From IMG/VR virus record IMGVR_UViG_3300008050_000019: 64,000 bases of DNA, one strand, 5' to 3'. The notes under the pieces are model-generated. The model was not told where the DNA came from. It saw nothing but the letters and a program-made list of their open reading frames with translations, and made no database searches. Positions 3,746 through 48,082 of this stretch are shown here, in pieces. Numbering within the stretch: the stretch's first letter is position 1; each line of letters begins with the position of its first letter. Source of the DNA: a virus. Made by a program: the position numbers and the translations under genes.

Positions 3746-3748
3746 ATA

Positions 3749-3822
3749 CACTCCCTAGTGGATTCGAACCACTGACCTTGAGCTTAGAAGGCTCCTGCGC
3801 TATCCAGCTGCGCTAAGGGAGT
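3749..3822 (-). tRNA. tRNA-Arg (anticodon TCT)
   Basis: Hand-folded cloverleaf: acceptor ACTCCCT/AGGGAGT, D arm GCGC-AGCTGGATA-GCGC, anticodon loop CTTCTAA, T arm AGTGG-TTCGAAT-CCACT. Confidence 0.85.
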
Positions 3823-4125
3823 AAATTGGCGCCACATTTAAAGCGCCTGCATATAGAATAGAATCATGTAATATACTACCGGGCCTATATACTCCCGGCA
3901 GGTAACCTGTATATGGTAAACTTGACATTGCCACGATTTATTATATGGCGACTTCTAAATGTCATGTGTCAAGCTCATTACATGATAATGATAAAGCTAT
4001 GGCTTTAATGTTCTAAGTCAGCGCATAATATTAACCCTCGTATTAAACTAATTGATTCCTCACGCTCAATCAGACGTTCGGCGTGTCGCAACCACAACAG
4101 CTGGCTAAGTAGCGTACTAGCCATA

Positions 4126-4210
4126 TGCTCAGAGCGGGAGTCGAACCCGCACTCCCATTAAGGGCGACGGATTTTAAATCCGTTGCGTCTACCAATTCCG
4201 CCATCCAAGC
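4126..4210 (-). tRNA. tRNA-Leu (anticodon TAA), type II with long variable arm
   Basis: Acceptor GCTTGGA/TCTGAGC, anticodon arm ACGGA-TTTAAAA-TCCGT, T arm GCGGG-TTCGACT-CCCGC. Confidence 0.85.
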
Positions 4211-4414
4211 TAATTTTCATTCAAGGTTATTTATTCCTTGTTAAAATATAATACCACCCTTTGAATTCAAAGATACTGTTATTTTTCATTAATTTAAATC
4301 AGTCAAGCTTTCTTAAACCAAGAAGCAGGAAATGGCATTCCCATACCCACTAAGCCATAATATACAGAACTGGCCTTGGTAGTTCAATCTTTATTATCTC
4401 ACCCATCTGTGTTC

Positions 4415-4720
4415 CTAAATGCTTTTATTCAAAGTAAATTCTGTCTGAGCAGGAAACACGATCGTTTTAATTCTGTAAGACTGATTCTTAAGTGTGTAGT
4501 TAACAACAGATAAACGGCCAGCAGACACTAATTCATTAACAAAGACAATCATTTTGTTTGCATCTAAGCCGCTAGGAAGAATAATATTTTCGTCATTCAA
4601 GTAATGTACTGAAGTGGATGCCAGCACTGTCAGTGTCATGGGTCCTTCTATGGTCACCTTATCAACCAAATAGTTTTTGAAATCGGCCTTTGTAAAAAAG
4701 GTACTCTTTTTTTTGTTCAC
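4415..4720 (-). CDS. hypothetical protein
   Basis: ORF track. The start abuts the 3' end of tRNA-Arg(CCT). Confidence 0.6.
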   Translation of the reverse strand: MNKKKSTFFTKADFKNYLVDKVTIEGPMTLTVLASTSVHYLNDENIILPSGLDANKMIVFVNELVSAGRLSVVNYTLKNQSYRIKTIVFPAQTEFTLNKSI

Positions 4721-4721
4721 A

Positions 4722-4795
4722 CGCCTCCTAGTGGACTCGAACCACCAACCTTAGGTTTAGGAAACCTACGCGCTATCCAATTGCGCCAAGGAGGC
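4722..4795 (-). tRNA. tRNA-Arg (anticodon CCT)
   Basis: Acceptor GCCTCCT/AGGAGGC, anticodon arm TAGGT-TTCCTAA-ACCTA, T arm GGTGG-TTCGAGT-CCACT. Confidence 0.9.
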
Positions 4796-4797
4796 AA

Positions 4798-4905
4798 TAT
4801 TCCAGCCCGGCTTTGAACCAGGATCTCTCTATTACGAGCGCTTTGACCGCTAAAAGATAAGCTAAGTAACCAAACTTCCGCCCATTCTTTTTTAAGCTAC
4901 TGGAT
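4798..4905 (-). other. tRNA-like element, unresolved (canonical T arm; possible degenerate, interrupted or pseudo tRNA)
   Basis: The T arm CCTGG-TTCAAAG-CCGGG is followed by CTGGAAT. The only 5' partner (AATCCAG, 1 mismatch) lies about 105 nt away. An internal hairpin AGCG-GTCAAAG-CGCT would give anticodon CAA. No standard cloverleaf could be folded by hand. Confidence 0.3.
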
Positions 4906-4911
4906 TACTGA

Positions 4912-4984
4912 TACGGCTGGGTGGAATTGAACCACCGACGTCCACCTTATAAGGATGGCGCTCTTACCCCTGAGCTACAGCCGT
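4912..4984 (-). tRNA. tRNA-Ile (anticodon TAT)
   Basis: Acceptor ACGGCTG/CAGCCGT, anticodon arm CCATC-CTTATAA-GGTGG, T arm GGTGG-TTCAATT-CCACC. Confidence 0.85.
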
Positions 4985-4989
4985 TTACT

Positions 4990-5382
4990 TTAAATGCTAT
5001 CTAAAACAGTTTGCATTTTATCTCGTACATCATCGAGCATTTCATCAATGGGGTCCATCTTCGCTCTAAGCTTATCATGCACCATCTCTTTAGCAGCTTC
5101 TTGTACATGGCGATCATAATCTCCAACCATCATGTCAACTATGTCAAGAAAGCGAAATGATTTCCCGTTAATAGTAAGCTCAACAGCAAAATTCCCGCCT
5201 TTCTCTTTTGCATCAAGAGCAACAGCTTCAACAATGCTTCTGTCTGCACTTATTAGGTTAAGAATTATTGTACCATACACGTTTTTGGAAGAACCTAGAA
5301 CGTCAATAGTACTAAAAGATTCTACACCATCTTTGTATGTAACATCAAAGGCTCTTTTAGTTTTACTTTTAATTTCTTCCAT
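4990..5382 (-). CDS. hypothetical protein
   Basis: ORF track, embedded between tRNA genes. Confidence 0.65.
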   Translation of the reverse strand: MEEIKSKTKRAFDVTYKDGVESFSTIDVLGSSKNVYGTIILNLISADRSIVEAVALDAKEKGGNFAVELTINGKSFRFLDIVDMMVGDYDRHVQEAAKEMVHDKLRAKMDPIDEMLDDVRDKMQTVLDSI

Positions 5383-5401
5383 CTTCTTTCTTTCTTTTAA
5401 A

Positions 5402-5474
5402 TGGGCCCAGAGGGATTCGAACCCCCGACAAAGGAGATATGAGCTCCCGACTCTAACCGCTGAGCTATAGGCCC
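5402..5474 (-). tRNA. tRNA-Met (anticodon CAT; an Ile2/lysidine type cannot be excluded)
   Basis: Acceptor GGGCCTA/TGGGCCC, anticodon arm GGGAG-CTCATAT-CTCCT, T arm GGGGG-TTCGAAT-CCCTC. No initiator hallmarks. Confidence 0.85.
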
Positions 5475-5899: not shown

Positions 5900-5925
5900 T
5901 ATCACGCATTAAATCATTTAACACA
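5900..5925 (-). promoter_or_regulatory. promoter-like motif instance (plus-strand TATCACG-N12-TAACACA)
   Basis: Lies 11 nt upstream of the 5889 start. Same motif family as the repeats at 36215-36412. Confidence 0.35.
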
Positions 5926-8523: not shown

Positions 8524-8536
8524 AGACGTAATCTCC

Positions 8537-8614
8537 AGGCTCACTCCTGATAAACCGGATATTTTATAATATAACCCCTTATTTTAATAAGGCCGGTTTA
8601 TCAGGAGTGAGCCT
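8537..8614. repeat. Hairpin repeat element, copy 2 (22-bp arms 8537-8558 / 8593-8614, 34-nt loop)
   Basis: AGGCTCACTCCTGATAAACCGG and its exact reverse complement. The loop is nearly identical to copy 1. It sits between convergent genes. Confidence 0.85.
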
Positions 8615-8651
8615 AGAAACAACCATGACACTTCATGATTAAAGGCAGGAA

Positions 8652-20908: not shown

Positions 20909-20980
20909 TATGATCAGAGGGACTCGAACCCTCAACATACCAGCCTGTAGTGCTGGGCTCTACCATTGAGCTATGATCAC
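20909..20980 (-). tRNA. tRNA-Val (anticodon TAC), non-canonical details
   Basis: Acceptor GTGATCA/TGATCAT, anticodon arm CCAGC-ACTACAG-GCTGG, T arm GAGGG-TTCGAGT-CCCTC. C rather than U at position 33 and no clear nt 26 in the hand fold. Confidence 0.7.
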
Positions 20981-34866: not shown

Positions 34867-36171
34867 TTACTCCGTTACTTCATTGTCTTCAGCAGTTTCG
34901 GTTGCCGGTTCAGCATCACCGTCAGTAAGAAGGTGCTTTTTTGCTAGGTCTGCGATGCCGGGCATCTTTTCCCCGATCTTTGTCGTAGCCAACATCCGCA
35001 TAAAGTGTGGACCGGCTTCAGGGTAGAAAACCTTGGCGTTGTTAAGGCTCGAGTTAATGATGCCGTTGAATAGTACAAAGCTAATTTCATCAGGTAATGT
35101 CTTCATTACGAATGCAAGGTTCTTTGCTTGCGGAACCGTTAGAGCGAGATCATCTTTCTCAACGTAAGCATTAAGCTTGTCTACAAGCGAAACAGACTCT
35201 TCTGGACGCAGTGCCTTAATTCTCTTCTCAGCGCGGTGCGCATCCTTAAGTAGCTCCTCAGGAGTGAGGATTGCATCTTGTTGCTCCATGAATTGGCTAA
35301 ATGCTCGAGCTGGAGTCGCACCGACGAAGCCCTTCATTACAGCATAAATAATATCCGGTTGTTGATCGATAAGACGACCTAGATTTCCGCGATTACGGAT
35401 AAGATGGTCACTTACCTTATGCCAGGAACGACGAGATGGTGTAATTTCCGTAGCATCCATCTGGGCCGCTTTTTCTGGTTTAACTTCAAAATGGCCTTCA
35501 TTACACTGCGAAATAAAGTCAATGACTTCATTACAAACCCACTGATTTCCGTACATCTCTCTTTGCTCATCGGTCATCCCTTCAGATGAGCGGCCCCAGT
35601 CCGTCCAATCTTTGAGATCAGGTTCAAGATCTGCAACCCAGAACCGATCGATGAATGCAGGATCCATCTGCGTAACATTATACTCCTTAGAGAAATTTAC
35701 AGCTGCGATGATCCGTGTTCCTTCATGGACCGTACGCCCATTTAGGCGGCCTTTCTCAACAAGCTCGAATGCAGCATTCTGCACTTCAGGTGTGCCACGG
35801 TTAATTTCATCAAGAAATAGTACGCAAGGCCGAAGTTGAGCCTCGAGAAACCAGTCAGGTGGAAGAAATTTCGTAACACGAAACCCACCAAGCTCCTCGT
35901 CATACTCAGACATCATCATTTGTTCGGACGTTAGGCCATCCTTAGGTGACTTTACCGCACCCCTGTCAGGAAGACCAATAATATCACCCTCGCTTAGCTG
36001 CGATACACGGCGTTCAATAACCGGAAGATTACCCCAAACCCGCGCCATTTGATAAGCAATTGCTGATTTACCGATTCCATGGGCCCCACGAATAAGTGCC
36101 GATTGGCGAGTGTCAAGAAATTTAAGTGCGTCAACCAGTCCACGGACTGTATAAGAAGATACTGCTGCCAT
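34867..36171 (-). CDS. MoxR/AAA_5-type AAA+ ATPase
   Basis: Walker A GAHGIGKSA, Walker B plus MoxR-type VLFLDEINRGTPEVQNAAFELV. Confidence 0.85.
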   Translation of the reverse strand: MAAVSSYTVRGLVDALKFLDTRQSALIRGAHGIGKSAIAYQMARVWGNLPVIERRVSQLSEGDIIGLPDRGAVKSPKDGLTSEQMMMSEYDEELGGFRVTKFLPPDWFLEAQLRPCVLFLDEINRGTPEVQNAAFELVEKGRLNGRTVHEGTRIIAAVNFSKEYNVTQMDPAFIDRFWVADLEPDLKDWTDWGRSSEGMTDEQREMYGNQWVCNEVIDFISQCNEGHFEVKPEKAAQMDATEITPSRRSWHKVSDHLIRNRGNLGRLIDQQPDIIYAVMKGFVGATPARAFSQFMEQQDAILTPEELLKDAHRAEKRIKALRPEESVSLVDKLNAYVEKDDLALTVPQAKNLAFVMKTLPDEISFVLFNGIINSSLNNAKVFYPEAGPHFMRMLATTKIGEKMPGIADLAKKHLLTDGDAEPATETAEDNEVTE

Positions 36172-36214
36172 TTTTTTCCTTTGTTAAAAACCATCTTGGT
36201 TGGATGATTTATTT

Positions 36215-36241
36215 TATTACGACGAAATTACATATAACACA
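36215..36241 (-). promoter_or_regulatory. promoter-like motif, proximal copy (minus sense ATGTGT-N17-TAATAA)
   Basis: TATTACG at 36215-36221, TAACACA at 36235-36241, about 44 nt upstream of the MoxR ATG. Confidence 0.45.
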
Positions 36242-36299
36242 TTTAATTTTCAATAATTTTGAAAGTGTTATATGATATATGCATTCCGTCCTTTTATAA

Positions 36300-36326
36300 T
36301 ATTACGTTAGAGTCTCAATTAACACA
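36300..36326 (-). promoter_or_regulatory. promoter-like motif, middle copy (CTGTGT-N17-TAATAT)
   Basis: TATTACG at 36300-36306, TAACACA at 36320-36326. Confidence 0.45.
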
Positions 36327-36385
36327 GTTAATTTTCAATGAATTATCAAAAATTTCTTTATTAATTGACTCCACCCTTTTTATAG

Positions 36386-36412
36386 TATTACGATGAAATC
36401 GCAATTAACACA
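36386..36412 (-). promoter_or_regulatory. promoter-like motif, distal copy (TTGTGT-N17-TAATAC)
   Basis: TATTACG at 36386-36392, TAACACA at 36406-36412. Confidence 0.45.
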
Positions 36413-36430
36413 AAAAAATAACGTATTATA

Positions 36431-36721
36431 TTATACTTTTTTCTTGCGTGAAACCCTTTTCTTTTTTACCGGGGCTGTAACAGGCTTCTGCACCAGTACA
36501 TCAACTAGTGTTTGTTTGGCAGGCTCATGAAGTAACTGCTTCTCTTTAAAATACGCAGAAACCTTAGCTTTCTCTATAAGTGTCAATTCAAGGCTTGCGC
36601 TCTGAAAATGTGCTAGTGCCGATGATATCGAGTCGAATTTTTTTGCACGTATATACGACTCTATGCTCATTTTCTTCCTTAAAAGAAAATCATTAAGTTT
36701 AGTTCCCATTTTGTTCTCCAA
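36431..36721 (-). CDS. hypothetical protein with basic C-terminus
   Basis: ORF track, KKKRVSRKKKV tail. Confidence 0.55.
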   Translation of the reverse strand: MENKMGTKLNDFLLRKKMSIESYIRAKKFDSISSALAHFQSASLELTLIEKAKVSAYFKEKQLLHEPAKQTLVDVLVQKPVTAPVKKKRVSRKKKV

Positions 36722-36980
36722 TTTGCATTGTGTCTTGCAAAAGTTCAGCTATAGACTTTTGAAAGTTCGGGTCTTGCGCTAATTTTGACGCGTCGCCCTC
36801 TACATTATAATAGTTCATAAGTTTAATAGCAAACTTCTCCATCGTACGTAGAATGCTATTGCGTACAGTAGAGTGACCAATGATAGTCCCAGCTGCTGTC
36901 ATATGCAAAGCTATCATTCTATAATCCATGCAGTCTTTTAGCGAAGTTGATATGGTTGAATACGTACTATCATTTTTCAT
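36699..36980 (-). CDS. hypothetical protein
   Basis: ORF track. Confidence 0.55.
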   Translation of the reverse strand: MKNDSTYSTISTSLKDCMDYRMIALHMTAAGTIIGHSTVRNSILRTMEKFAIKLMNYYNVEGDASKLAQDPNFQKSIAELLQDTMQIGEQNGN

Positions 36981-37155
36981 CTTTCTTTTTCTCGTCTTTA
37001 TTTTTGTTTTCTGGCCAATAACCTTTCTCTTTAAGAACTGACACGCTAAACTTTACTGTTTCAGTTGCTGCGTCTAACGCGACCTTTACAACAAAAGTCT
37101 CTGCTGCCTTTACAGCAAGCTTTTTTGCTAAATCGCCGAAAATAACATTAAGCAC
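36970..37155 (-). CDS. hypothetical protein
   Basis: ORF track. Its start overlaps the sigma gene stop by 8 nt. Confidence 0.45.
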   Translation of the reverse strand: MLNVIFGDLAKKLAVKAAETFVVKVALDAATETVKFSVSVLKEKGYWPENKNKDEKKKDEK

Positions 37156-37999
37156 ATGAAGCCTTCATCTTCTCTAACTCTTTAGAGGAGATTGGAAACT
37201 TTTTATGATCTTTTGGATTTTCCGTTAAACCAAATCTCATTCTAAGTATCTTTTCTTCTCTAGGGTTTAGTGAGTTTAAAACCCCAGATAAGAGAGCAGT
37301 AAGTTCTTTTTTATTAATTAAATCAAGTGGGGATTCTGAGTCGACGTCTTCTATTACATCTTTTAATGTTCTTGAGTCAGCGCCATCTGAGCCAATGGGC
37401 TTATCAATAGATACCAGCAAAGGAATACCTGAAATTGCTGATTGGACTGTCGTTTCAGTCACCCCTATTATCGATGCAAGCTCGGCGCAGGTAGGTTCTT
37501 GTGCATGCAGTTCAATGAATTCATCACGTGCCAATTGTATTCGAACGTAAACGTCAGTAACCCTACCAGAGGTCTTTATCTGCTTACTTTGTGATGCAAC
37601 TTCGCGCCCGATATTTTGGCGAATCCACCAAGTTGCATATGTTGAGAATCTAAACCCTTTTCTCCAATCAAATAACTCAGTAGCTCTGATTAAACCAATA
37701 TTGCCTGCTGCGATTAAGTCATCAAGACTGCAGCCTCTATTTTGGAACCTTTTTGCTATCGAGACAACTAAGCGTAAGTTAGATTCTATCATCTTATTCT
37801 TAGCTCTTGATTTCTCACTTTTGCTAATTGCTTTTGAAGATTCTATTCTTATTTCGCCATCAGGCTCTCTTGTATATTTAACATCCTCAAAGCCCTCAAT
37901 TTTTTGAGAAAGAATAATTTCTTGTTCTTTTGTAAGCAAAGGTCTTTTACCAATCTGTTTAAGATAAAATCCTACGCCACCACTATCTTGTTTAGCCAC
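37148..37999 (-). CDS. sigma-70 family RNA polymerase sigma factor (region 4.2 apparently missing)
   Basis: Region 2 NLRLVVSIAKRF...DLIAAGNIGLIRATELFDWRKGFRFSTYATWWIRQ and region 4.1 EKILRMRFGL are present. The sequence ends 25 aa later without the TRERIRQIE-type recognition helix. Confidence 0.85.
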   Translation of the reverse strand: MAKQDSGGVGFYLKQIGKRPLLTKEQEIILSQKIEGFEDVKYTREPDGEIRIESSKAISKSEKSRAKNKMIESNLRLVVSIAKRFQNRGCSLDDLIAAGNIGLIRATELFDWRKGFRFSTYATWWIRQNIGREVASQSKQIKTSGRVTDVYVRIQLARDEFIELHAQEPTCAELASIIGVTETTVQSAISGIPLLVSIDKPIGSDGADSRTLKDVIEDVDSESPLDLINKKELTALLSGVLNSLNPREEKILRMRFGLTENPKDHKKFPISSKELEKMKASCA

Positions 38000-38877: not shown

Positions 38878-39160
38878 TGTTATATTATTCTCTATTTAGT
38901 TTTTAAGTTTAAATTGAGTAATCTTTTATTAACTCGCTTGTATTAGAACCATATGTCCAAATTTGTCCTGAGATCCATTAGCAAAAAATTCGCTAAATGG
39001 CTACTACCATATTATGCGTCTGAGTATCTATTTTGGCGAATTTGAATATCATGGAAAATATACAACTCGAACATGTGCAAGATTAATCCTGCTCTTTTCT
39101 GGATGATTTTATATCATCACTAGGATGGTAATAGGTTAAAAATTACGATGAACTAGTAAT

Positions 39161-39442
39161 TCAATCAAGTTGTGATACTAACTCAATGTCTATAACTTCA
39201 ATGCTACGAGTTTCACCCATAGGCATCTTTTTAATGAGACCTCTTTTACCATCCCCGTTTTCTTCGTCGACACCTAAAAATAGAAAGTACGTGCCCTTCT
39301 CGATGGGTACTGCTCCTTTAAACCAATCGTATGGGTGTTTTTCCTTTCCTTCATCATTTCCAAAAATAAACCCGTCTGATCGTGAAACTAAATCTTTAAC
39401 TGTCATAACCATATCGCCAAGTCTAAAACTACTTTTTACCAT
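39161..39442 (-). CDS. GDL-family small protein
   Basis: FRLGDMVMTV motif. Confidence 0.55.
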   Translation of the reverse strand: MVKSSFRLGDMVMTVKDLVSRSDGFIFGNDEGKEKHPYDWFKGAVPIEKGTYFLFLGVDEENGDGKRGLIKKMPMGETRSIEVIDIELVSQLD

Positions 39443-39680
39443 CGCCTTTTTTTGCCTTTTTTAAGAAAAGAATATCTTCTCGTGATATTTTTTCTATTCT
39501 ATTATCTACATAGACGTTGCAGAAGGGTCCATGAGCCCATACATCATAACGTCTATGAAATGTCATGTTTGTTTTACCAGAATTAAAACCCTCTTGTAAC
39601 GAGAGAATTATTCCTATTTTATTTAATGATGATATCACAATAAGATCACCAATTTCATATAAAGTTTTATCTACACACAT
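39429..39680 (-). CDS. GDL-family small protein
   Basis: YEIGDLIVIS motif. Confidence 0.55.
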   Translation of the reverse strand: MCVDKTLYEIGDLIVISSLNKIGIILSLQEGFNSGKTNMTFHRRYDVWAHGPFCNVYVDNRIEKISREDILFLKKAKKGDGKK

Positions 39681-41532
39681 TTGAAAAAATTCCCCTTAGA
39701 ATGTTTGTGTATCGGGACGCATTTAGAGGATATAGTTCTATCAATCTTGCCACATCATTAAAGACTATAGAATCCCATTGCAGAAAGAACTGTGTTTGTG
39801 TTATTATATACATTTCGTATGCATCCCCTGGTGTGCATATACCTACACCACAGTTGCTCGTATTTAGCGCTACATCACTTTCATTGAACCCAGCAACTGT
39901 CTGGGCTGCTTCGTCTGTAATAAGAATGATGTAAGGGTATGCCCCTGTTGATGTTACAGTAGATTCTCTCCAATTGATAAGTGCTGGATTTGTGCTGTTC
40001 GCTAAATCATGAACTACATCGTATGAAGGCTCTACACCTGGATATGATGCGGTAAGATTGTTCAATGCTGCAGAAAATACAGTAAAATCAACGAGATTTA
40101 CTAGTACATTATAATTATCTCTTCTACCAGGAAATACAACTAAACCAAACCTATGTTCTGTCCCTTGAAAGTCTGCAACATAATTACTTATCCCTGCTTG
40201 CAGAGCGAACATAGCTTGTGTCATTGAACCTGAGCCATCTATCACAAAAATTATATCTACCTTATCATGTGGTGTAAGATCCTCATCGATGAGCCCATCA
40301 CAGTCATTGTCAACCCCATCACAAGATTCTTGCTCAGGATAAACTGGTCCAATGCAGCTTGACCAAATGCCTGAAGTGCATGTTCTCTCGCCTAAAACGC
40401 ATTGTCCGATACCAGCCGTAGCAGGATCTCCGCATGCGTCTGTTAACTCATCGATTGTGCCGTCGCAATCATCATCCCAGTTATTACACACTTCGGGCTC
40501 GGTAGCAAAAGAATAACATGTACCCCATACACCATTAGAATCGCATATTGAAATGCCGGTACCGCAATTGATAAGCTCTCCCGTAGCGTGATCTAAGACA
40601 TTTTGTCGGCATACTCTAGCGTCACCGACTGTACATGCACAATCTTCATCGATTATCCCATCACAGTCATTATCAAAACCATCACATATTTCTCGTACTG
40701 GTTTTCTAGCATTACACCCTATCCAGTTGCCCACGTTGCAACTTTCTATACCACTTTCACATGAGGTTCTGCATAACCTCTCAAGCCCTTCATCAATTGC
40801 ACCATTACAGTCATTATCAAAACCATCGCAAATTTCAGGCGAAGGGTGTACAGCACCAACGCAATATGTTTCTTCTGATGTACATATTTGAGTGCCAAGT
40901 TGACACAAACCAACTTCACTTGACGGGCCGCATGAATCTAAAATTTCTTCGTCAGTAATACCATCACAATTATTATCAAAACCATCGCAAGTTTCTGGTG
41001 TCGGCAAAATAACGCCTGTACATTGTCCCCACACACCATGAGTACACCTTTGTTTTCCAGTTCTGCAAACGCTAGGGCTAATATAACTGTCGACAGCTGG
41101 ACCAGTCCAGCAATCCCGTGAATAATTGTCAATTACACCATTACAGTCATTATCAAAACCATCGCAGATTTCTATCCCGCCTGGGTTTATTTCGGCTATA
41201 TTGTCGTTACAATCGTTATCACAAGAGTTGTAGCCATCACCATCACCATCATGTCCTTCGTCAACTAAACCATCGCAGTCATTGTCCAAACCATCACAGA
41301 TTTCATTAACTTGTCCGATGAACCCTTCACAAAATGCCATTTCATTTTTAGCATCGCATGAAGTAATCCCCTTTTGGCAAGTGCCAATAGAATCTTTAAG
41401 ATTATCTGTTATTATTTTTCCGTTATTTATTATACACGGGCGTGGGGACTGACATACTCTCGATAAGTTATCATCTTCACATGCAGCAATAAAAAGCAGG
41501 GAGATAGATAAAAGTATATATTTCAACTTCAT
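39667..41532 (-). CDS. secreted lipoprotein with 7-8 MopE-type CDGxDNDCDGxxDE modules and a C-terminal VWA domain
   Basis: Signal peptide plus lipobox LLFIAAC. Modules CDGLDNDCDGLVDE, CDGFDNDCNGVIDN, CDGFDNNCDGITDE and others. VWA MIDAS VIDGSGSM. Confidence 0.8.
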   Translation of the reverse strand: MKLKYILLSISLLFIAACEDDNLSRVCQSPRPCIINNGKIITDNLKDSIGTCQKGITSCDAKNEMAFCEGFIGQVNEICDGLDNDCDGLVDEGHDGDGDGYNSCDNDCNDNIAEINPGGIEICDGFDNDCNGVIDNYSRDCWTGPAVDSYISPSVCRTGKQRCTHGVWGQCTGVILPTPETCDGFDNNCDGITDEEILDSCGPSSEVGLCQLGTQICTSEETYCVGAVHPSPEICDGFDNDCNGAIDEGLERLCRTSCESGIESCNVGNWIGCNARKPVREICDGFDNDCDGIIDEDCACTVGDARVCRQNVLDHATGELINCGTGISICDSNGVWGTCYSFATEPEVCNNWDDDCDGTIDELTDACGDPATAGIGQCVLGERTCTSGIWSSCIGPVYPEQESCDGVDNDCDGLIDEDLTPHDKVDIIFVIDGSGSMTQAMFALQAGISNYVADFQGTEHRFGLVVFPGRRDNYNVLVNLVDFTVFSAALNNLTASYPGVEPSYDVVHDLANSTNPALINWRESTVTSTGAYPYIILITDEAAQTVAGFNESDVALNTSNCGVGICTPGDAYEMYIITQTQFFLQWDSIVFNDVARLIELYPLNASRYTNILRGIFSNVCR

Positions 41533-48015: not shown

Positions 48016-48082
48016 TTATTTAATTATAAAATATTAAATGAATAAAATACACTCGTTTATAACGCCACTTTAGTCACTCATA

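Follow-up and report, generated by a model that had tools for sequence, protein, structure and literature searches.

A probable tandem array of three phage promoters in the spacer upstream of a MoxR–VWA gene pair

The window, the whole 64,000-nt stretch of viral DNA analysed here, is coding almost wholly on its minus strand. A gap of 259 nt (36172–36430) lies upstream of a gene for a MoxR-type AAA+ ATPase, bordered by the stop codon of the upstream ORF (36431–36433) and by the MoxR ATG at 36171; its length, recomputed from these ORF borders, agreed with that given in the first-pass annotation. This spacer is 76% A+T and holds the repeats that are the subject of this report. The surrounding genes and signals, in minus-strand order, are:

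37148–37999, minus strand: phage sigma factor, RpoD-like but with region 4.2 cut short; candidate factor for recognising the promoter class described below
36699–36980, minus strand: conserved 93-aa helix-turn-helix protein, its gene lying after sigma and before the array
36171–36181, minus strand: Shine–Dalgarno-like AAAGGA and the start of the MoxR ATG, as read from the sequence
34867–36171, minus strand: MoxR-type AAA+ ATPase (Pfam AAA_5, PHROG 1297), the first gene after the array
33433–34866, minus strand: DUF2201 metallopeptidase/VWA gene (Pfam DUF2201_N and DUF2201), abutting MoxR (34867/34866)
33395–33426, minus strand: terminator-like hairpin after VWA and before MVP, with 12 pairs, 7 of them G-C
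30704–33280, minus strand: MVP-like gene

The repeats had originally been placed upstream of a MoxR-VWA-MVP cluster. We confirmed these genes and their order, and the array certainly faces MoxR and VWA; its direct reach may be confined to these two, because the terminator-like hairpin separates VWA from MVP. This hairpin is the likely 3′ limit of the array-driven unit. A TTGTAA-N18-TAAAAT site precedes the MVP gene, which may depend on read-through or on a promoter of its own. A MoxR-vWA(metallopeptidase) pair has been described in the group 2.2 jumbo phages, where it is thought to aid virion assembly (PMC7824862), and the window fits the description of that group.

The pattern TATTACG-N13-TAACACA, reported to occur three times in the gap, had exact plus-strand matches in the 64-kb window only at 36215–36241, 36300–36326 and 36386–36412, and allowing two mismatches added no further sites. 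A repeat search returned three 34-nt copies at 36208, 36293 and 36379, with a period of 85 and 86 bp. Tandem Repeats Finder reported no repeat at the array. The units had been described as 85–86 bp repeats; this holds for their spacing, but the part conserved in all three is only a core of ∼36 bp. The three cores, with their elements as read on the minus strand, are:

36377–36412, minus strand: core of unit 3, the most upstream (TGTGTT 36407–36412; CGTAA 36388–36392; −10 TACTAT 36382–36387)
36291–36326, minus strand: core of unit 2 (TGTGTT 36321–36326; CGTAA 36302–36306; −10 TATTAT 36296–36301)
36206–36241, minus strand: core of unit 1, the proximal one (TGTGTT 36236–36241; CGTAA 36217–36221; −10 TAAAAT 36211–36216)
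36242–36253, minus strand: 12-mer ATTGAAAATTAA upstream of the unit 1 −35, with a second copy at 36327–36338 upstream of unit 2

Pairwise identity between the units was 64–81% over the core, and 23 of the 36 core columns were the same in all three, where chance would give 0.115 per column at 76% A+T (P ∼1e-13). The flanks were 20–44% identical against a chance expectation of 32%, except in the 24-nt stretches that precede units 1 and 2, where 17 positions agreed (71%, P = 1e-4). The 12-mer common to units 1 and 2, TTAATTTTCAAT, had been pointed out before, and the sharing was seen again in the repeat search. The ATTGAAAATTAA 12-mer is A/T-rich and contributes to the loops and inner stems of the hairpins. 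Two sets of small ORFs in the spacer were considered as genes and dismissed. Those on the minus strand, of 13 and 19 codons, are not conserved between units and have the shared 12-mer in different reading frames; those on the plus strand, of 45–49 aa, are opposed in direction to all the neighbouring genes.

On the minus strand, each unit reads TGTGTT-N14-CGTAA-TAnnAT. All three have the bipartite form of a sigma-70-family promoter, TGTGTT-N19-TAAAAT, -TATTAT or -TACTAT, with T1, A2, A5 and T6 in every −10 hexamer. The first-pass annotation had read xTGTGT-N17-TAATA(A/T/C). Its TGTGT is retained here as the −35-like block, but its −10 hexamer lacks the near-invariant final T, and we placed the −10 3 nt further downstream, at N19 from TGTGTT. 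Because of this shift in register, TATTACG comprises the TA of the −10 and the reverse complement of a ‘−16’ element, cGTaa. The new register is backed by five other promoters with an unambiguous TATAAT at N18 or N19, and the N19 spacing recurs in eight of the nine relatives examined below; the best hexamer was chosen within 17–20 nt, so that such spacing statistics are partly circular.

Conservation between the units is concentrated in the promoter determinants: 15 of 15 determinant columns were invariant, compared with 8 of the 21 other core columns (Fisher P = 9e-5). The latter figure is still above chance (P = 0.0016), which argues for common descent of the units. Start points predicted from sigma-70-type geometry lie near 36375 for unit 3, 36289 for unit 2 and 36204 for unit 1 on the minus strand, leaving a predicted leader of about 33 nt for unit 1. 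Three other types of site were considered and rejected. A plus-strand promoter would have to use the inverted AGTGTT near 36265, but there is no −10 at N18/19 from it, and the TATAAT is 25 nt away. The CRP-like site TGTGA-N6-TCACA lacks its second half-site and the ECF-type promoter ..AAC-N16/17-CGT.. has the wrong spacing, both as judged by eye.

The same elements are found across the window. The loose pattern nGTGTw-N15-19-TAwwwT had 24 matches, 23 of them on the coding (minus) strand, and about 20 of the 24 were intergenic, where intergenic DNA makes up 8% of the window. A stricter pattern matched 20 times in the sense and 3 times in the antisense orientation, where shuffled sequences averaged 4.6. 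These sites mostly lie 35–70 nt upstream of start codons and give the consensus wGTGTw-N18/19-(cGTaa)TAwwAT. When 21 sites were aligned on the −10, the most frequent bases were C at −17 (9/21), G at −16 (14/21), T at −15 (16/21), T at −12 (20/21), A at −11 (20/21), A at −8 (17/21) and T at −7 (19/21). The −35 block is wGTGTw, not the canonical TTGACA, to which it comes closest as gTGttA at 18-nt spacing. The pattern TTGACA-N16-18-TAnnnT had 20 plus-strand and 21 minus-strand matches in the window, mostly intragenic and with no strand or intergenic bias. Our search of the literature found no description of this promoter class or of transcription in this phage clade.

A matrix trained on 13 other promoters, with the three units left out, was used to score 128,000 positions on both strands. 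Unit 2 scored 26.0 (rank 3), unit 1 25.7 (rank 5) and unit 3 24.8 (rank 7), all with a spacer of 19, and no plus-strand position equalled the weakest unit.

The array could owe its appearance to chance resemblance in A+T-rich DNA, given that simple sigma-70 scans yield many matches here on both strands. Shuffled sequence contained a mean of 0.65 matches to TATTACG-N13-TAACACA, and 3 of 100 shuffles reached three matches, scattered somewhere in the 64 kb. Chance does not account for the three-way identity of 23 of 36 columns (P ∼1e-13), nor for ranks of 3, 5 and 7 among 128,000. The spacer was the same, base for base, in two further independent assemblies (JGI 3300025133 and Logan SRR5467136), so that all three agree and an assembly artefact is ruled out. 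Chance and artefact are effectively refuted, and the array is confirmed as a real feature.

We then read the sequence upstream of MoxR in nine relatives (L003, L004/5, L006-8, L023, L024, L025, L026/7, L031 and L032), whose MoxR proteins are 47–60% identical and whose GC contents range from 0.34 to 0.64. Each of the nine had exactly one (T/C/A)GTG(T/C)w-N18/19-(T/G)AnnAT site, 24–100 nt upstream of the MoxR start (67–100 nt in eight of nine), in a spacer of roughly 70–180 nt. Unit 1, at 70 nt from the MoxR ATG, lies within the range of those eight. Wherever the contig was long enough, gene order was also kept: sigma, two small ORFs, the spacer, MoxR, DUF2201/VWA and, further on, MVP. The class is sense-biased in the relatives as well, in samples from sewage, forest soil and other sites. 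The repeats had been called promoter-like in the minus sense, and this is borne out by the class match across the window, by matrix ranks within the top 10 and by a class site before every MoxR orthologue examined. From the sequence evidence, we put the probability that the units are three copies of this phage's standard sigma-70-family-type promoter at roughly three in four.

Because each of the nine relatives has a single copy, the ancestral state would be one promoter and the triplication lineage-specific. The closest relative is L003, whose single copy aligns at about 75% over the core to unit 2, the most similar of the three units. Tandem triplication of a spacer that carried the promoter probably gave rise to the three copies. 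The constant period of 85/86 bp and the similarity outside the motif are signs of head-to-tail duplication, yet the other flanks are at chance level. After triplication, selection would keep the promoter determinants while the rest drifted. A MoxR protein search of the databases returned no relative between 60% and 100% identity, and a search of IMG/VR with the MoxR protein found no relatives. A motif scan of IMG/VR gave 14 single scattered matches and no triple array, about the number expected by chance on a rough estimate. Among 50,697 phage records there was no near-identical DNA, and the sigma factor was at most 38.6% identical to anything there.

The triplicate arrangement had also been taken to suggest multi-input control or an operator array. 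Under such a scheme, the core or long imperfect palindromes would bind a phage regulator, for example the 93-aa HTH protein, for cooperative repression or activation. The 85/86 bp spacing is in helical phase, a conserved HTH protein gene adjoins the array, and an inverted TAACAC...GTGTTA arrangement is seen in units 1 and 2 as well as in two further promoters, near 5925 and 15769. However, the same determinants recur in all three units, and no conserved position is spare for a separate operator: every position conserved in all three belongs to the promoter consensus or is T10 or G11, both frequent in the class at large. The distance between inverted partners is not fixed (12, 15 and 24 nt), most class promoters have no such partner, and the palindromes pair better as RNA, with G-U pairs, than as DNA. 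Palindromic half-sites of fixed spacing and specific to this locus, as expected of an operator, were not found; the motif is that of a general promoter. We therefore regard an operator array as decidedly unlikely, and the suggestion of multi-input control is not upheld.

Direct repeats in a 76% A+T region also call to mind iterons or another replication or packaging signal. The motif, however, fronts many genes, always in the sense orientation, and cumulative GC skew shows no inflection at the array. The 85-bp spacing and the architecture of the copies are unlike iteron arrays of 17–22 bp, and no replication initiator gene is adjacent. A role of this kind is very improbable indeed.

Folding of the spacer transcript predicted three hairpins in the sense direction:

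36402–36449, minus strand: hairpin bridging the end of the upstream ORF and the TGTGT of unit 3 (z −3.3 for the 86-nt piece)
36308–36373, minus strand (sense transcript): hairpin A, opening ∼2 nt downstream of the start predicted for unit 3
36221–36290, minus strand (sense transcript): hairpin B, beginning at the predicted unit 2 start

Hairpin A had a folding energy of −16.6 kcal/mol in the sense direction (z −4.4), compared with −8.1 in the antisense (z −1.3); for hairpin B the values were −22.7 kcal/mol (z −6.0) and −15.8 (z −4.2). The extra stability of the sense strand is accounted for by G-U pairs. The 3′ arm of hairpin A is formed by the −35 and spacer of unit 2 and that of hairpin B by the −35 and spacer of unit 1. 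The arms of the two hairpins differ in sequence, yet both pair. The whole sense leader also folded better than shuffled sequences (z −4.2), and the single-copy spacers of the relatives had no overall structure (z −0.8 to +0.6). Hairpins A and B were rejected as intrinsic terminators, as they are A/U-rich, are followed by UAACGUAAUA and GUAAUAAAAU with no U-run, and were not called by the terminator scan. Inside the 36402–36449 hairpin is a short stem that leads into a T7 run; the scan made no call here either, and this could possibly be a weak terminator of the sigma operon. A search of 35900–36800 against Rfam 15 gave only a chance snoRNA match inside the MoxR gene (13 bits, E = 0.97). Our best guess, by analogy, is that hairpins A and B would act as a 5′-terminal stabiliser or an RNase III-type processing site.

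These hairpins bring in the serious alternative to three working promoters, namely that only unit 1 works as a promoter. Units 2 and 3 would then be kept as a structured leader, their hairpins lying in read-through transcripts from the sigma operon and serving in RNase III-type processing, as a 5′ stabiliser or as an attenuator, or they would be sites for parking or decoying polymerase. Unit 1 lies 70 nt from the start codon, like the single copy of the relatives; the two long hairpins are strand-specific, highly significant and absent from the relatives' spacers; and a further hairpin links unit 3 to the end of the upstream ORF. Against this, units 2 and 3 keep 15 of 15 determinants and score as high as unit 1, which is unexpected without selection for promoter function, and the hairpins are not intrinsic terminators, having no U-run, and have no Rfam match. 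We consider it unlikely that unit 1 acts alone.

In the preferred reading, with three working promoters, the holoenzyme would load at each of the three copies. RNA polymerase has a footprint of roughly 75 bp. The spacing of 85/86 bp, about eight helical turns, would be just above that footprint, and with three start points the single operon would be transcribed at a higher level. Hairpin A would open the unit 3 transcript and hairpin B the unit 2 transcript, and these leader hairpins would serve as 5′-end stabilisers or processing sites. Very strong expression from the array, as originally proposed, is plausible, and the array is probably there because the MoxR-VWA chaperone pair is needed in large amounts. 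Upstream copies could also interfere with downstream ones by occlusion instead of adding output. We note too that a pure ‘more promoters’ model leaves the long hairpins unexplained.

All these phages have a gene for an RpoD-like sigma factor, located two or three genes before the spacer on its upstream side. In the window, alignments of this protein to RpoD/SigA models and to solved structures end at RMRFGLTEN, equivalent to about residues 569–572 of the 613 in Escherichia coli RpoD. Only 22 residues follow, with a tail, DPxDHxxFPITxxELxxL, that is conserved in six relatives; this is too short to hold the full region 4.2 HTH that reads TTGACA. The truncation of region 4.2 fits the non-canonical −35. 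The sense bias of the class across GC contents of 0.34–0.64 and at varied sites speaks for a phage-borne specificity factor and against many host sigma-70s. The most likely reader would be the host core polymerase with the phage's own sigma factor. In a published description, group 2.2 jumbo phages combine the host polymerase with sigma factors of their own (PMC7824862).

The 93-aa protein is a possible accessory factor, which we offer as a lead only. It has 114 homologues, matches no Pfam family and contains an HTH-like motif, GHSTVRNxVLRTMEKFA. An AlphaFold model built with an 85-sequence alignment had a pLDDT of 84.5 (the single-sequence model, at 54, was unusable), and its fold matches were weak. 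In an hhalign comparison with a small region-4 alignment the HTH was in register, but the match was weak (E = 0.64), and a profile search of the PDB with the protein gave spurious matches only. It is conceivable, though rather unlikely, that TGTGTw is read by this HTH protein and not by sigma region 4.2, the two polypeptides making up a ‘split’ sigma; in that case the array would serve for high-capacity loading of this phage-specific holoenzyme, with hairpins that add stabilisation or processing at the RNA level. If this were true, a split sigma would define a promoter class across an uncultured jumbo phage clade with hosts of very different GC content.

It was the occurrence of three near-perfect copies side by side that made the phage promoter consensus readable. 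That consensus is conserved in an uncultured jumbo phage clade with GC contents of 0.34–0.64, every member of which encodes a sigma factor whose −35-reading domain is truncated. The result is a testable promoter model for annotating transcription units in these genomes and for reconstituting phage-sigma-dependent transcription in vitro. The locus also offers a natural comparison of one copy with three for the evolution of promoter dosage.

Tandem promoters before a single unit are known from the early A1-A2-A3 promoters of phage T7 and from rrn P1-P2 of E. coli; those of T7 were reportedly described by Dunn and Studier in 1983. The array has the same organization, with three top-scoring sites in the same direction, no gene between them and a single 259-nt spacer. 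As in T7 A1-A3 and rrn P1-P2, promoters of sigma-70-family type follow one another about 85–125 bp apart and face one downstream unit. In contrast to both systems, the copies in the array are homologous to each other, and would be the products of duplication. They also have a non-canonical −35, TGTGTT, probably read by a phage sigma and not by host sigma-70, and the hairpins between the promoters use the −35 and spacer of the next promoter as their 3′ arm.

In some sigma-70 promoters the −10 is extended on its upstream side, as in the extended −10 TGn and the Gram-positive ‘−16 region’ TRTG. Like these, the class has two blocks 17–19 bp apart, a TAnnnT in which A2 and T6 are conserved, and a conserved dinucleotide immediately before the −10. 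It differs in having wGTGTw instead of TTGACA, and in that its cGTaa element (G-16, T-15) is one position off the canonical T-15 G-14.

Promoter classes specified by phages include the middle promoters of T4 (MotA box and AsiA) and those that depend on SPO1 gp28 or gp33/34. As in T4 middle promoters, SPO1 and the group 2 jumbo phages (PMC7824862), the class appears to have a phage-specific upstream element in place of the host −35, with TAnnnT kept, and the phage encodes its own sigma. The class element occupies positions −37 to −32, upstream of the −30 centre of the MotA box, and the sigma factor here is RpoD-like through region 4.1 with a shortened region 4.2. No MotA or AsiA homologue came up among the genes identified.

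At the RNA level, the ompA leader is a 5′-terminal stem-loop that stabilises its mRNA, and RNase III processing hairpins occur in phage early mRNAs. Units 3 and 2 resemble these in having predicted stem-loops 0–2 nt from their predicted 5′ ends. The 5′ ends in the array are predictions, however, and its A/U-rich stems contain many G-U pairs. In T7, transcripts undergo processing at RNase III hairpins (PMC6938266); there, as in the array, structured RNA follows the promoters. By its organization, the array is a predicted set of tandem promoters, a known device in a new instance. Its added interest lies in copies that are homologous duplicates, in a clade-specific class with an unusual −35 and in transcripts of the two upstream copies, which would open with hairpins formed in part by the next promoter.

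Across the window, the start codon lies just 4–10 nt past the −10 hexamer in 9 of 13 promoters outside the MoxR array that belong to the wGTGTw class (wGTGTw-N18/19-(cGTaa)TAwwAT, where wGTGTw is the predicted −35-like block), a spacing from which leaderless or nearly leaderless mRNAs would follow for many first genes of transcription units. Examples of these promoters are:

−35-like blocks at 48053, 46324, 45934, 30651, 29415, 15769, 9713, 5925 and 2302, minus strand

The MoxR gene, in contrast, has a predicted leader of ∼33 nt, which contains AAAGGA. In several of the relatives that carry a single promoter copy upstream of MoxR (L003, L006, L023, L024 and L031), a short hairpin of 6–7 bp follows shortly after the predicted −10. 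This hints that a 5′-proximal stem-loop may recur in the MoxR leader, although the MoxR spacers of the relatives, taken whole, had no significant structure overall.

Strong terminator-like hairpins were found on both sides of the MVP-like gene:

30653–30689, minus strand, 16 pairs, 3′ of the MVP gene
33395–33426, minus strand, 12 pairs, between the VWA and MVP genes

The T-run of the hairpin at 30653–30689 leads directly into the next TGTGTT promoter, which is a tight packing of predicted terminator and promoter. Two related long palindromes occupy separate intergenic regions:

8524–8651, intergenic palindrome
28406–28601, intergenic palindrome

The palindromes read GGCTCACT(C/T)CT(G/A)ATAAAC ... 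GTTTAT(C/T)AG(G/A)AGTGAGCC and may terminate transcription in both directions or be copies of a dispersed repeat. A degenerate stretch resembling the tandem promoter units of the MoxR spacer was located at the upstream end of a 283-nt spacer, which precedes the gene block that includes the phage sigma factor:

39132–39167, minus strand, unit-like stretch TGATTGAATTACTAGTTCATCGTAATTTTTAACC

It has TTCATCGTAAT in common with unit 3, the most upstream of the tandem cores, and lacks GTGT.

The sigma factor itself (37148–37999, minus strand), the candidate reader of the wGTGTw class, is RpoD-like up to and including region 4.1 and ends 22 residues past RMRFGL. Comparison with the sigma genes of L004, L006, L023, L024, L025 and L026 showed a conserved tail, DPxDHxxFPITxxELxxL, which, judged by its length, is too short to form a normal region 4.2 HTH. 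A frameshift was rejected as the cause of the truncation because the whole clade shares it.

All six tRNA genes (Arg-tct, Leu-taa, Arg-cct, Ile-tat, Met-cat and Val-tac) lie on the coding strand, and most of these tRNAs read A/U-ending codons:

3748–5474 and 20909–20980, minus strand, six tRNA genes

A further repeat array lies within a gene (39667–41532, minus strand) that is syntenic in relatives:

40280–41308, minus strand, seven diverged 54-nt repeats

The encoded 621-aa protein additionally has a VWA domain, and the seven repeats match seven MopE-type metal-binding motifs in it.
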